From an uncultured Gammaproteobacteria bacterium (GTDB taxonomy: Bacteria; Patescibacteriota; Microgenomatia; UBA8517): a stretch of 51,351 bases of DNA. Shown here one piece after another: positions 1 through 9,049 of this stretch. A program made the translations under genes and the position numbers. The DNA lies in NCBI GenBank assembly GCA_964506225.1, contig CAZDKH010000012.1, forward strand, positions 1 through 51,351, given 5' to 3'. The notes beneath the pieces were generated by a model. The model did no database searches, was not told where the DNA came from, and saw only the letters and a program-made list of their open reading frames with translations. Position 1 is the first letter of the stretch. Every line of letters starts with the position of its first letter.

Positions 1-301
1 GCTGCTCCCAGTCTTTTTTCTTGGTCCATCTGGCTTTTCTTTTGTAGGGTTTTAAGCCATTTGCCTTCATTACCCTTCTGGCTCTTTTCTTGTTGATCCC
101 AAGCTCCAGAGCTATTCTTCTGTGACCATAGGCAGGATTTAGCTCCATAACCTTGATAATTTGATCCTTTAGAAGCTCATCTTTGACTACCTGTCTGCTG
201 TTTTGGTTGTACAGGTTTCTTCTGGAGATGCCCAAAGTGGAGGAGATAAGGGATTTCTTGATCTTTTTTAGTTTGACTTGGACTCTCTCAACGACCTCTC
301 T
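1..301 (-). CDS. IS3 transposase OrfB, N-terminal part (partial, reached by -1 frameshift)
   Basis: -1 frame is open to the window edge: REVVERVQ...NPAYGHRRIALELGINKKRARRVMKANGL, matching the IS3 OrfB YGxRRI/NxKRxxRxM pattern; absent from the ORF track. Confidence 0.85.
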
Positions 302-549
302 TTTTTTTTTGACTTCTCAAGCTCAAGAGAAAGTAATCCAATTATTTCCTTGAGCTGTTGATTTTCCTTTTTGAGCCTGATATGCTCCATCCAACTTACC
401 TGTCTTGTGGCTTTCCCCCGGAGCCAGTTGTAAATAGTCTTGGTACTCACTCCATATTTCTCAGACAAAGAAGGCACGCTTTCACCAGCCTTAACTTTAG
501 ATATGATTTCCTCTTTGACTTCTTTTGATATTCCTGCCAACTTAATCAC
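268..549 (-). CDS. IS3 transposase OrfA (HTH)
   Basis: HTH-like 'LSEKYGVSTKTIYNW' followed by coiled coil 'LKKENQQLK'; A10G slippery run near the 3' end. Confidence 0.85.
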   Translation of the reverse strand: MIKLAGISKEVKEEIISKVKAGESVPSLSEKYGVSTKTIYNWLRGKATRQVSWMEHIRLKKENQQLKEIIGLLSLELEKSKKKERSLRESKSN

Positions 550-2230: not shown

Positions 2231-3052
2231 TTATTCAAGACGTGCGCTTTTTAGAGCACTTCTGCATTCACAATCGTTACTTTTATCAGGCCATTGCCTT
2301 AACATTTTAACCAAAAGCTTTTTAGCCTTTGTTATATTAGAATTAAAATTTTTAACTACTTCCTCAACTGTCACAGGCTTTATTTTAGTCCCGCCGGCAA
2401 CCCCGGCATCGTAATCTGTTACAAGGGCGATTGCACAGTAACAGATTTCAAGTTCACGGGCTAAAATTACCTCTGGATATTGAGTCATGTTCACAATGTC
2501 CCAGCCCATTTTTGAAAACCATTTGCTTTCGGCGCAGGAAGAGAATCTGGGGCCGTTGATTACGACAGAAGTACCCTTTTTGTGTATCGGAAAATTCATT
2601 TTTTTGGCAATTTTATAAACAAATTTTGACAATCTGGGGCAGTAAGGATAAGCTGCTGAAATATGGGTGACTAGAGGCCCTTGGTAGTAAGAGTCGGCTC
2701 GCCCGCTGGTTCTGTCTATAAACTGGTCAATAATCACAAAATCTCCTCTTTTAATTCTTTTTTGCAAAGAACCGCAAGCAGTGGTTGCGATGATTTCTTT
2801 TACTCCAAGCGATTTTAGCGCCCAAATATTTGCCCTGTAGTTAATTAAATGTGGAGGAATGTTGTGAGATTTATTATGGCGGGGAAGAAAGGCTACTTTT
2901 TTTCCCGATACGCTACCAATAGCAATTTTATCAGAGGGTGGACCAAAGGGGGTATCAATTTTTACTTCCACCAGATTTTCTGATAAATCGTAAAATCCTG
3001 ATCCACCGATGATAGCTATATCAGCCTGTTTTCTCACAGAATTATTATACAT
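2231..3052 (-). CDS. mtnP: S-methyl-5'-thioadenosine phosphorylase (true start may be GTG at 3037)
   Basis: IIGGSG, TPFG, LPRH, NYRANI, GPRF, NMT and VTDYD motifs. Confidence 0.92.
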   Translation of the reverse strand: MYNNSVRKQADIAIIGGSGFYDLSENLVEVKIDTPFGPPSDKIAIGSVSGKKVAFLPRHNKSHNIPPHLINYRANIWALKSLGVKEIIATTACGSLQKRIKRGDFVIIDQFIDRTSGRADSYYQGPLVTHISAAYPYCPRLSKFVYKIAKKMNFPIHKKGTSVVINGPRFSSCAESKWFSKMGWDIVNMTQYPEVILARELEICYCAIALVTDYDAGVAGGTKIKPVTVEEVVKNFNSNITKAKKLLVKMLRQWPDKSNDCECRSALKSARLE

Positions 3053-3065
3053 CTACATCTAGTGG

Positions 3066-3094
3066 TTGACTAAGAAGATTTTTTGTTTCAAGAT
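3066..3094 (+). promoter_or_regulatory. sigma70-type promoter for the riboswitch transcript
   Basis: TTGACT-17 nt-CAAGAT; predicted start near 3101 coincides with the aptamer 5' end. Confidence 0.5.
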
Positions 3095-3100
3095 TTGGGT

Positions 3101-3194
3101 TAGGTTGTGTTTAAGGAACACCGGTTGAATTCCGGGGCTGTGCCGCAACTGTAGAAGCCAGAAAACTAGCAGCCTTTAGTCCCGAGCAGGAAAT
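3101..3194 (+). promoter_or_regulatory. Compact cobalamin riboswitch with translational platform
   Basis: AAGGAA-CCGG(TTGAATT)CCGG-GCTGTGCCGCAACTGTA-GAAGCCAGA core; closing helix AGGTTG/CAGCCT; 3' hairpin TCC-CGAGCA-GGA just before the ATG. Confidence 0.85.
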
Positions 3195-3999
3195 ATGTCG
3201 TCGCATCCAGAAAGTCCTTATTTTACTACATTACGGTTTGTTGAAAGCTGGAGACAAGACCAGACTCGTCTTAAAGCTGAGCTTACTTCGTTGAATAAAG
3301 AGACCCACAGAATACCAGATGTTTACCATTTTCAAGTTGACGAAACTCTCATAGATCCGGAAACTGAAAGACCTATCTTTGATTTCATTGCCCCAGGTAT
3401 TGAATATGATATAGCAAAAAGACTAGAGAAGTGGGCCTTAGAAAATGATGAAGGAGTAGCTTTTTGGGTGAGTCCACGTCTTGAGGGCATTTATCCCTGT
3501 AACAAAATAATCATTCACACTATTTGTTATACCTTGGAAGGGAAGAAGGTTATTTTAAATAGTGCAATCTTGTTTGATGGGGAGTTGAGTAATCCGGAGG
3601 AACTAAGGAGAACTCTTTTTTTTGCACCTGACAACGATGAAACATTCTTAAGAATTCTTAATTGGATAGAAAATATATCCCACCAGAAGATTCAAAATAG
3701 ACATGGTAGACATGATTATAGAAGCGTTAGAGAACAGGCTAACTATTTTGCGAATCTAATTAGAACTGGCTATCCTGCTGACTTGGTTGTTTATGAAATG
3801 CAAAAAAGTGGCTTTCTTGGCCCAAACCCAGTCAGTTGTCCTTCTTTTTCCGGATTTTTGGGTTTTCGCTCAAAAATTCACATTTTTGAGGGCAAAAGAA
3901 TTCTTTGTTGCAGGTGTCCATTTTGCGGCAGGGAGGTGGCTGCAGAAATCTATGAGGGCAAAATTCACTGTCCCAATTGCGGACGTTCAAAACCATATG

Positions 4000-4007
<8 letters not shown>
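3195..4007 (+). CDS. Hypothetical soluble protein with C-terminal zinc ribbon
   Basis: 270-aa ORF with CPFC...CPNC at the C-terminus; no family recognised. Confidence 0.75.
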
Positions 4008-6622
<2,615 letters not shown>

Positions 6623-6645
<23 letters not shown>

Positions 6646-8317
6646 TTTCTTTAAGAATACCCTGCCTTTCTTTAAAACTTTTGATGAAGTTGGTAACTAC
6701 CTCTGTGAGTTTTTGCCAAGTCTCCTCATTTATATCTTTTGACTCGGCTATTTTTGTAAATAACTTTTTCTCTTTTTCTTTTATGAAACCAAGAAATTCT
6801 TTTTCTGCCCTTTGCACCAGTTCAAGAGGTATCTCATCAAGTGCACCAGATACTCCCAGAAAAATTGCCAAAACCTCATCAATTACATGCATTGGTTCAT
6901 ATTGGGGTTGCTTTAAGAGTTCTACTATTCTTTTTCCCCTTTCGATTTTTTGCTTTGTGACTGGATCAAGATCGGTTGTAAATTGCGCGAAGGTTGCCAG
7001 TTCCCAGTATTGTGAAAGATCAAGTCTAAGTCTGCCTGCCACTTTTTTCATTGCAGGTAACTGGGCCTTACCCCCGACACGCGAGACAGAAAGACCCACG
7101 TTTAATGCGGGTCTTATTCCTGAAAAGAATAAATCGCTTTCTAAATAGATTTGTCCATCGGTAATTGAAATAACGTTTGTCGGAATATAAGAGGAGACAT
7201 CACCTGATAATGTCTCAACTATTGGCAGAGCTGTTAGGGATCCGCCACCTTTTTCTTTGGCTAACTTGCACGCACGTTCTAAAAGCTTTGAATGAAGATA
7301 AAATATATCCCCCGGGTAAGCTTCTCTGCCCGATGGCCTTTTTAAAAGAAGAGAAATTTCACGATAAGCCCATGCATGTTTTGTGAGATCATCATAAATT
7401 ACCAGAACATCTTTCCCTTTTTCCATAAAATATTCTCCTATAGCTGTTGCAGAGTAGGGAGCCAGATATCTTAAACTTGCAGGATCTGAAGCTGAAGCCA
7501 CGACAACAACAGAGTTTTTTAGGACATCATACTCTTTTAACTTATTGATAACATGGGCAATTTTTGCTCTTTTCTGGCCTATAGCTACATAAATACAGAT
7601 AACCCCGCTGTCTTTTTGATTAATGATAGTATCAAGAGCAATGGCAGTTTTTCCAGTACTCCTGTCTCCTATAATAAGTTCCCTTTGACCTCGGCCTATG
7701 GGAATCATCGAATCAATAGCCTTGATTCCTGTTTGCAAAGGAACGCTGACTGGCTCCCTTTCTATAATCGATGGGGCAATTTTCTCAACAGGCATTAGTT
7801 TATCGGCTACTAAGGCCTCTTTTTCATCAAGGGGTGTACCCAAGGGGTCGATAATTCTTCCCAGAACTTTATCACTGACTCCGATTGATAAGATTTCGCC
7901 TGTTGAGATGGCCGTGTCTCCTTTGCGGAGAGTTTCAGACTTTCCCAAAATAATTGTTCCGAGTTTATCTTTTTCAAGGTTTAAAACAAGTCCATAAGTT
8001 TCATTGGAGAATTTGATAATCTCCCCATACATGGCGCCATCTAGACCATCTAGCCAAGCCACAGAGTCTCCGACGCTTATAATTCTGCCCTCATCAACCA
8101 GTTGTCTTTTTTGTCCTTCAAGTTCACCTGAAAGAGATAAATCCAAAGTTTTTGAGCCAATCTGAATTTTTAGTCCTCCCAAAAGACTGGGGTCCACTTT
8201 ATACTCTAAAACAAAGCTTTTACCTCCCAGAAAGGTGGCAATACTTTTTTTTACCCTTAGTCTTTCCTGAGAAGAAAGATTGGTGGCAGTAGTGACTAAA
8301 ACCTTACTTTTTCTCAT
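6623..8317 (-). CDS. atpA: F1 alpha subunit with N-terminal fused delta (OSCP) C-terminal domain
   Basis: GDRSTGKT and REAYPGD; first ~68 aa contain VDPSLLGGLKIQIGSKTLDLS, the delta signature. Confidence 0.95.
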
Positions 8318-8816
8318 TATTAAGCCTTAGTTGTTTTAAGCTTGCAATTGATGTATCGATTATTCTTTTTTGAATGTTTTTGGCCAGGTTTTTCTCTAGT
8401 ATCTTTCTTATCACTTCTTTTGCAATTTCATAAGCTTTTTTCTCAATTTCATTTTGTATGTTTTCTTTTTCTCTTTTTATCTCGTCTTGGGCGCTAGCAA
8501 TTATATTTCTGGCTTCATTTTCAGCTCTTTTTAGAATTTTTTTCCTTTCTTCCTCAGCCTCAGCTTTGGTTTTTTCCAAAAGTTCTTGGGATTTAAAACT
8601 TGCTTCTTCTAAAATTTGTTTTCTTGTTTTTTCAAGCTCCTCTTTTTGTTTTGCCAAAATCTCACGATCCTTTTCAATGTCCTCAATTTTTTGGCGCTTT
8701 TCTTTAATAGCGTTAATAATGGGTTTGTATAAGAACTTTTTAAGCAAAAAAACCAAAATACCAAAGTTTATTAACTGCACCAAAATTAAAGATGGATTTA
8801 TTCCTAATTTTTCCAT
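8304..8816 (-). CDS. atpF: Fo subunit b
   Basis: QLINFGILVFLLKKFLYKP membrane segment followed by charged coiled coil. Confidence 0.95.
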   Translation of the reverse strand: MEKLGINPSLILVQLINFGILVFLLKKFLYKPIINAIKEKRQKIEDIEKDREILAKQKEELEKTRKQILEEASFKSQELLEKTKAEAEEERKKILKRAENEARNIIASAQDEIKREKENIQNEIEKKAYEIAKEVIRKILEKNLAKNIQKRIIDTSIASLKQLRLNNEKK

Positions 8817-8824
8817 AGTTTTTA

Positions 8825-9049
<225 letters not shown>

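Follow-up and report, generated by a model that had tools for sequence, protein, structure and literature searches.

The closest described relatives of the RNA treated here are the cobalamin (Cbl, vitamin B12) riboswitches of class Cbl-IIa, the env8HyCbl type (Rfam RF01689, clan CL00101). They are built on a four-way junction of helices P3 to P6, with a T-loop-like L4 and a loop-capped P6 and without P7 to P11; a kissing loop between L5 and L13 leaves a nucleotide unpaired on the L13 side, the ribosome-binding site (RBS) lies in P13/L13, and control is translational. Chan 2020 (PMC7367189) defines the class by a loop-capped P6, no P6 hairpin extension and a bulged J1/3, and describes the L5-L13 kissing loop as common to all classes. 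According to Polaski 2016 (PMC5028336), the L13 side of Cbl kissing loops always has one or more unpaired nucleotides, the RBS is located in L13, and env8 variants with a linker of 0-4 nucleotides (nt) gave no regulation. We have analyzed an RNA of this kind at 3102-3175 on the forward (+) strand of a 51,351-nt stretch of DNA (contig CAZDKH010000012.1, here called the window), together with the protein of 270 amino acids (aa) encoded by the open reading frame (ORF) that follows it, which we call X (3195..4007, +, start ATG 3195, from the ORF list).

B12-independent isozymes are among the classical targets of OFF-type Cbl switches, and proteins of the CblC/MMACHC type are corrinoid-processing chaperones. 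Transcobalamin-type B12 binders have DUF4430 as their C-terminal domain (PMC4350170), and BtuM is reported to use a Cys as axial ligand of the bound B12 (PMC6072759). With BtuM and the CblC-type chaperones X would share a functional analogy only, namely an invariant Cys on a mobile loop by a pocket domain and expression when B12 is scarce; no sequence or fold likeness to them was found, and X is not a membrane protein. Our literature searches turned up nothing relevant on a cobalamin riboswitch in Patescibacteria or the candidate phyla radiation (CPR), or on ribonucleotide reductase and B12 in Patescibacteria, and nothing on the family of X.

The aptamer and its relatives

The sequence-only reading of this DNA had proposed a compact cobalamin riboswitch, and all the elements that it quoted (B12-box core, GGAA, hairpin, Shine-Dalgarno (SD) sequence, ATG 3195 and ORF) were found in the sequence where it had placed them. 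On the + strand, P1 (3102-3107/3170-3175) and P2 (3109-3111/3164-3166) enclose GGAA at 3115-3118, CCGG-UUGAAUU-CCGG at 3121-3135, GCCGCAACUGUA at 3142-3153 and AAGCCAGA at 3156-3163. P4 (3121-3124/3132-3135) is capped by a T-loop-like L4 (3125-3131), P5 (3139-3140/3146-3147) by the loop L5, UGCCG (3141..3145), the aptamer half of the putative kissing loop in the alignment, and P6 (3149-3151/3159-3161) by a 7-nt L6 (3152-3158).

Taken without its relatives, the window RNA is suggestive and stays under threshold. Covariance models of both relevant Rfam families match it over their full length: in a permissive scan of 2950-3350, AdoCbl-II (RF01689; AdoCbl, adenosylcobalamin) spans 3102-3175 (+) at 30.8 bits (E 2e-5, model positions 1-81). 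In the whole 597-kb assembly (15 contigs, 85% complete) each of the two families matches once, at this very site (RF01689 E 7.2e-6), Cobalamin (RF00174) spanning 3088-3188 at 25.9 bits. What counts against a riboswitch at this level is that both scores lie under the Rfam gathering cut-offs (36.5 bits for RF01689 and 31.5 bits for RF00174), that a gathering scan of all 51,351 bases of the window gave 0 RNA family matches, and that the minimum-free-energy fold of 3053-3210 is no more stable than those of shuffled sequences (z +0.74). The 11-mer CCCGAGCAGGA has one match, yet 30 of 100 shuffles match it with at most one mismatch, so that it is not rare alone.

Comparison was made within a set of 61 genomes, this one (G000) and 60 relatives from the same family, order and class; the relatives are not independent, and counts over them are descriptive, not statistical tests. 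RF01689 matches were found in 36 of the 61 genomes (12 over cut-off) and RF00174 matches in 32 (15 over cut-off), the union of both giving a switch in 40. The switch sequences of the relatives are strikingly similar to one another, and the core positions of the window switch all match those of relatives that score over the Rfam cut-off. A covariance model, R1, was built from nine compact switches of eight genomes, the window excluded, with a hand-given structure comprising the aptamer and P13. In the 51-kb window R1 finds a single site, 3102-3200 (+), at 83.3 bits (E 1.8e-17), and across the 48 sources searched it gave 48 matches, which align as 44 distinct rows. In these 44 distinct sequences 93.7% of the structure cells are paired against 78.1% in shuffles, 20 of the 27 pairs vary on both sides, and the covariation score of 0.402 (0.130 shuffled) was reached by 0 of 500 shuffles, in an alignment that is fitted to the nested helices of the model and so favours them, the kissing-loop pairs lying outside the model. 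Slid controls, in which the partners were moved by 1-3 columns, scored at most 0.134, and P1, P4, P5, P6 and P13 each have pairs altered on both sides.

Alignment and covariation together identify the RNA at 3102-3175 as a cobalamin riboswitch of compact Cbl-II architecture. A conserved core and a four-way junction (P3-P6) closed by P1, with covariation, are present, as defines clan CL00101 (Cbl-II), and no P7-P11 extension follows the loop-capped P6. Comparison with the relatives places this RNA on a lineage-specific branch of a known riboswitch class that Rfam thresholds miss. It differs from described Cbl-IIa switches in its lineage-specific 5' side (GUGUUUAAGGAA), in its P2 register, in a J1/3 equivalent that departs from the Rfam consensus, in a linker of 4 nt and in its score under the Rfam cut-off. 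The loop-capped P6 resembles Cbl-IIa, which prefers hydroxocobalamin (HyCbl) or methylcobalamin (MeCbl), but HyCbl/MeCbl against AdoCbl is not readable from the sequence given that some orthologous switches have a hairpin inserted in L6, with a Cbl-IIb- or Cbl-I-like look.

To the points against the identification must be added one close relative, G006 (its region identical to locus L029), in which the aptamer is absent and a promoter, TTGACA-17-TAAAAT, lies directly before X. The X of this locus (L004 2320-2420, - strand, G006:C16; L029 3930-4000) is the closest X orthologue, at 376 bits, and between promoter and X lies CCCAUAGCGGGAAACAUG, which resembles a remnant of the P13 hairpin. The record of L029 bears the title Gammaproteobacteria and is probably a mislabelled bin. 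Upstream of the window aptamer, a promoter scan found no + strand promoter under its criteria; a weak candidate is the -35 hexamer TTGACT (3066..3071, +), followed after 17 nt by a weak CAAGAT.

That a well-conserved branch escapes the Rfam thresholds has a practical consequence, since annotators then mis-call read-through N-terminal extensions. In five metagenome proteins (P0064, P0119, P0074, P0027, P0031) the database gene call begins too early and translates the riboswitch itself, the conserved GUGCCGCAAC(C/U)GU appearing as CRNR or CAATV. One relative, G034, holds an additional switch missed by both Rfam scans (L015 1910-2130, - strand), whose P6 extension is of about 70 nt.

Expression platform and proposed control of X

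Behind the aptamer, the 4-nt J1/13 linker UUAG (3176..3179, +) leads into the P13/L13 regulatory hairpin UCC-CGAGCA-GGA (3180..3191, +). Its loop L13 occupies 3183-3188, and its 3' half carries AGGA (3188-3191), the only SD before the start codon. The hairpin is conserved. Exact CGAGCA comes after 32 of the 42 switch matches whose downstream ORF was examined (G060, at 22.6 bits, and G013:C19 stand outside this set), nearly always as (U)CC-CGAGCA-GG(A) and a few bases upstream of the start codon. Furthermore, the P13 stem covaries (UCC/GGA, UCU/AGA, UUU/AAA), with all three stem pairs altered on both sides. Four relatives have a variant platform (L015 of G034, L044 of G027, L067 of G046 and L051 of G020), in which the aptamer is followed by a longer hairpin, CCCGA(C/G)CCC...GGG(G)CUCC, and then by the SD.

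The earlier proposal also included a kissing loop between L5 (UGCCG) and L13 (CG[A]GCA) over this SD, and the comparative data are compatible with it. GUGCCGC, which contains L5, is unchanged in almost every one of the 48 aligned matches, and its UGCCG can pair with L13 read as CG-GCA, the A in the middle being skipped. Kissing-loop cells are 96.6% paired, in columns that are otherwise almost invariant. The L13 position that does vary is the proposed bulge, as in CGCGCA (G058), CGUGCA (G050) and CGUAGCA (G055), and a single compensatory change is found in G036, where in the switch before the DUF4430 gene L5 changes from G to A and L13 from C to U. The kissing loop of the window would consist of five Watson-Crick pairs and one bulged A, whereas that of env8 has two unpaired purines and an A-G pair according to PMC5028336.

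Other observations tell against this platform. The near invariance of the kissing-loop columns means that support for the proposed pairing comes from one compensatory change and from analogy; G022 has an uncompensated change, L5 being UUUCG with an ordinary CGAGCA; and the window linker of only 4 nt falls within the range of 0-4 nt in which env8 variants did not regulate according to PMC5028336. The length of the J1/13 linker differs among the relatives.

By analogy with solved Cbl riboswitches, from which the OFF direction is taken, the element is likely a translational OFF switch. With corrinoid bound, L5 (3141-3145) would dock with L13 (CG[A]GCA, 3183-3188), leaving A3185 unpaired; docking would hide the sole SD, within the hairpin UCC-CGAGCA-GGA, and the ribosome would be blocked at ATG 3195. 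When no ligand is present, the kissing loop would open and the 270-aa X would be translated. X would thus be made only under B12 scarcity, as a B12-starvation protein. We infer control at the level of translation because a scan of the leader found no terminator between the aptamer and the ATG.

Protein X and the B12 economy of its relatives

The linkage between switch and X is conserved among the relatives. In 34 of the 42 switch matches the next ORF belongs to the X blastp cluster; 28 of these ORFs are clear and six are long forms (G055, G058, G009, G026, G053 and G015) joined only via the blastp cluster and weak profile matches. Behind five switches lies a gene for a protein of about 140 aa that has a membrane anchor and DUF4430, and three end at a contig edge. 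In three further public loci the switch lies immediately upstream of X. In the relatives, therefore, the switch mostly precedes an orthologue of X, and an orphaned switch, left here while its counterparts stand before a known B12 gene, is ruled out by the same 34 of 42. X is monocistronic and without a conserved downstream partner.

X has a predicted isoelectric point (pI) of 6.3 and no transmembrane (TM) segment, its maximum Kyte-Doolittle mean over 19 residues being 0.92; in the family only three of 159 proteins exceed 1.6, and the median pI is 5.6 (acidic). The sequence-only reading had held that the protein lacks a TM segment and resembles no known B12 family, and both statements agree with our scans. 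A Pfam scan at E<=0.1 returned only three sub-threshold zinc-finger families, an NCBIfam scan gave no match, Pfam and NCBIfam scans of 8-10 divergent family members gave nothing relevant, and X matches none of the profiles for B12-binding PF02310, PduO/EutT PF01923, MMACHC, DUF4430 and DUF6580. A word-indexed search found nine homologues at 42-54% identity, and a profile run against 1.84 billion representatives brought 690 matches at E<=1e-3, 474 of them at E<=1e-10. Among 401 phylum-wide genomes there were seven profile matches, all in the class of the window, the most divergent members being missed by the profile; similarly, profile A1 detected X in only 22 of the 61 genomes, a limit of its sensitivity. 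Public records carrying related loci are titled Patescibacteria or Microgenomates, and in one case Gammaproteobacteria. As far as sampled, the family appears to be confined to one class of Patescibacteria.

Across the 159 family proteins a set of residues is nearly invariant: E36 (158), W91 (149), S93 (157), P94 (153), K/R104 (155) and R138 (158), with C215 present in 159 of 159; each of the four cysteines of the ribbon occurs in 152-158. The window X (predicted local distance difference test, pLDDT, 84.8; predicted template modelling score, pTM, 0.75) and the G038 orthologue (86.8 and 0.80) gave AlphaFold models that agree with each other: an alpha/beta core is accompanied by a layer of helices, a loop of low confidence that begins at the invariant Cys, and a small ribbon. 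The predicted PAS-like alpha/beta core, from the AlphaFold2 model and VIA-align, covers residues ~23-161 (3261..3677, +) and contains E36, W91-x-S93-P94, K104 and R138. The codon of Cys215 (3837..3839, +) stands at the start of the flexible loop, whose pLDDT falls below 50 over residues 219-236 in the window model. A zinc-ribbon-type CxxC-x14-CxxC (C241, C244, C259 and C262; 3915..3980, +) follows, seen in the alignment and in a profile match. It has two CxxC knuckles spaced within the 8-14 residues of zinc ribbons and a small beta ribbon with strands at 235-267, and the metal could be Zn or Fe.

Both models are confident. Foldseek against the PDB gave no match at E<=1e-3 for either model, scores in the ESM Atlas (<=0.83) were in the range of chance, and a PDB profile search matched the ribbon part only, to eL43/L37Ae zinc ribbons (E 1.5e-4). 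A wide VIA-align search returned almost exclusively PAS, LOV and Cache domains, with a five-stranded antiparallel sheet and flanking helices at residues ~40-140 that align to many PAS domains. The best alignment, that of the G038 orthologue, has Z 6.2 and a root-mean-square deviation of 3.5 A over 90 residues, and that of the window X has Z 5.1; both lie under the level at which VIA-align indicates more than a common arrangement, and the PAS likeness may reflect merely that. Unlike PAS domains, X has no Pfam PAS match, and its invariant residues W-x-S-P, Glu and Arg are not known to be signatures of PAS domains.

The relatives appear to depend on imported B12 for the synthesis of DNA precursors. 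A large chain of ribonucleotide reductase (RNR; PF02867) occurs in 56 of the 61 genomes and the class I small subunit NrdB (PF00268) in two; three RNRs were checked, and all pass the NrdJ model. In most relatives no RNR type other than NrdJ seems to be present. The PduO adenosyltransferase (PF01923) is found in 54 genomes, and the B12-binding domain PF02310 and DUF6580 (PF20221) in 17 each. FecCD, the BtuC-type permease, is over cut-off in four genomes and CbiQ, the T component of energy-coupling factor transporters, in one; the relatives thus seem mostly to be without canonical B12 importers.

In the same lineage a second operon stands behind a riboswitch (L099, G029:C73; L114, G036:C1; L117, G022:C28); its products are a DUF4430 protein with a membrane anchor and a DUF6580 protein some 190 aa long. 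It shares with X the riboswitch type and the CGAGCA hairpin, and in G029, G036 and G022 it lies directly upstream of switch-X, in the order switch-DUF4430-DUF6580-switch-X. Its proteins have signal or membrane segments and belong to known Pfam families, whereas X is soluble and family-less. The operon, whose products are probably a corrinoid binder and a small membrane protein, is a likely uptake system, so that the regulon would not be wholly exotic; DUF6580 is a candidate for the corrinoid transporter in these CPR bacteria. DUF6580 had no PDB or NCBIfam match, and no literature on it turned up. Of the 38 genomes that have X, seven contain it, as do 10 of the 23 in which X was not found (Fisher p 0.044, the relatives not being independent). 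In G010 a DUF6580 gene (G010:C1:195613-196113) lies beside pduO and three nrdJ-like genes.

In the assembly that contains the window, CobS and CobD were not found, in line with the earlier view that this lineage is not thought to make B12. The only B12-linked enzyme gene found there encodes a 560-aa B12-binding radical SAM protein (PF02310 and PF04055; G000:C8:13174-14856, L091 1384-3066). This enzyme was considered as the reason for the switch and rejected, since PF02310 occurs in seven of 40 genomes with a switch against 10 of 21 without. Among the genes that a B12 switch would control directly, X is the commonest in the relatives and the only one found in this assembly; as it is also of no known family, it is the obvious first candidate to test.

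What X may do

A new B12-linked function for X, as the sequence-only reading proposed, is plausible; for its suggestion that X is a cue for host contact we found no evidence. We give about an even chance to a reading in which X would serve to capture or to process the scarce corrinoid that is imported, its invariant cysteine thiolate perhaps acting as cobalt ligand. X would then hand the corrinoid on to the PduO adenosyltransferase and the AdoCbl-dependent NrdJ. This reading is favoured because X adjoins uptake genes in three genomes and nrdJ-pduO in two, because its pocket-type fold is combined with an invariant cysteine on a mobile loop, because BtuM provides a precedent for a Cys-ligated corrinoid, and because canonical importers are mostly missing from the relatives. 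The two nrdJ-pduO neighbourhoods are those of G058, with nrdR-nrdJ-pduO-switch-X (TIGR02504 571 bits, TIGR00636 143 bits), and of G015, where X is convergent with pduO-nrdJ-nrdR. Two more direct roles were tried and rejected: X is not the adenosyltransferase, since PduO is present in 54 of the 61 relatives and adjoins X in G058, and it is not a transporter, having no TM segment in a family with the hydropathy given above.

Corrinoid capture or processing by X must be weighed against several facts. X has no sequence or convincing fold likeness to known B12-binding or B12-processing proteins, and its invariant Glu/Ser/Lys/Arg/Cys set looks equally like that of an enzyme acting on another substrate. 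X was not found in 23 of the 61 relatives, most of which still have NrdJ and PduO; B12 use as such therefore does not require it. Finally, neither RNR nor NrdD, PduO, DUF4430 or DUF6580 was found in this 85% complete assembly; a check for nrdJ therefore succeeded only in the relatives. As the assembly is 15% short of marker genes and nrdJ and pduO are usually adjacent, one missing contig could explain the absence of RNR, NrdD and PduO.

There is a real chance that X, whose family is uncharacterised, is a new kind of B12 protein. More tentative, and in our judgement somewhat doubtful, is the stronger proposal that X is the founding member of a new class of cytoplasmic proteins for the capture or processing of corrinoids, with a PAS-like pocket, an invariant Cys thiolate as cobalt ligand and a metal ribbon, and that it would be the key B12-starvation response of NrdJ-dependent CPR bacteria without known importers. 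If true, it would explain how ultra-small cells secure a cofactor needed for DNA synthesis.

A different role would follow the logic of metE, nrdAB and nrdDG, with X as a B12-independent bypass or backup that supplies or spares a product, for example by deoxynucleotide salvage, when NrdJ or the B12-radical-SAM enzyme stalls. B12-independent isozymes are among what OFF-type Cbl switches classically control, the invariant residues look catalytic, NrdJ is apparently the sole RNR type in most relatives, and the neighbours of X in the window are genes of nucleoside salvage, for a PNP/MTAP-family phosphorylase and a phosphoribosyltransferase. Those neighbours are, however, divergent and not conserved, TIM, VIT1 or type IV secretion system (T4SS)-like genes taking their place in other relatives, and the 270-aa PAS-like X has neither a P-loop nor a family match and none of the hallmarks of RNR or known salvage enzymes. 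Together with the position of X beside uptake genes and nrdJ-pduO, this makes a bypass unlikely.

We consider it improbable, to a degree beyond that, that X is a regulator or checkpoint protein, in which a PAS-like sensor and a zinc ribbon binding nucleic acid or a partner would tune replication, nrdJ expression or growth when B12 is exhausted. The PAS-like fold is typical of sensors, the C-terminal ribbon resembles ribbons that contact RNA or DNA (eL43, RPA12, Fpg), and a monocistronic gene without a conserved partner would suit such a role. But X has no helix-turn-helix (HTH) or output domain, its fold matches are weak (Z at most 6.2) and perhaps merely a common arrangement, riboswitch control would make a second sensor redundant, and, as a mild objection, acidity such as that of this family is unusual for a nucleic-acid binder. 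Last, that the RNA is a decayed or chance look-alike without regulatory role and X constitutive is hardly credible, since the sub-threshold Rfam scores, the unremarkable fold energy and the aptamer-less G006 are set against the R1 score at a single window site, core positions shared with relatives over the Rfam cut-off, strong covariation and a conserved SD hairpin.

Around the switch and X, other genes were noted. In G017 (L104 6124-9834), G035 and G055 a conserved trio lies divergently upstream of switch-X, consisting of a TraG-like P-loop ATPase, a 246-aa protein of no known kind and a PrgI/CarboxypepD_reg protein, which resembles a type IV secretion or conjugation-like module. In the window, a 93-aa ORF at 268-549 (-) has an HTH-like N-terminus and a coiled C-terminus, and we take it to resemble OrfA of an IS3-type transposase. 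Convergent to X, at 4000-9046 (-), the ORF translations point to an F-type ATP synthase operon, in the order epsilon, beta, gamma, a 564-aa protein like an alpha-delta fusion, b and c.

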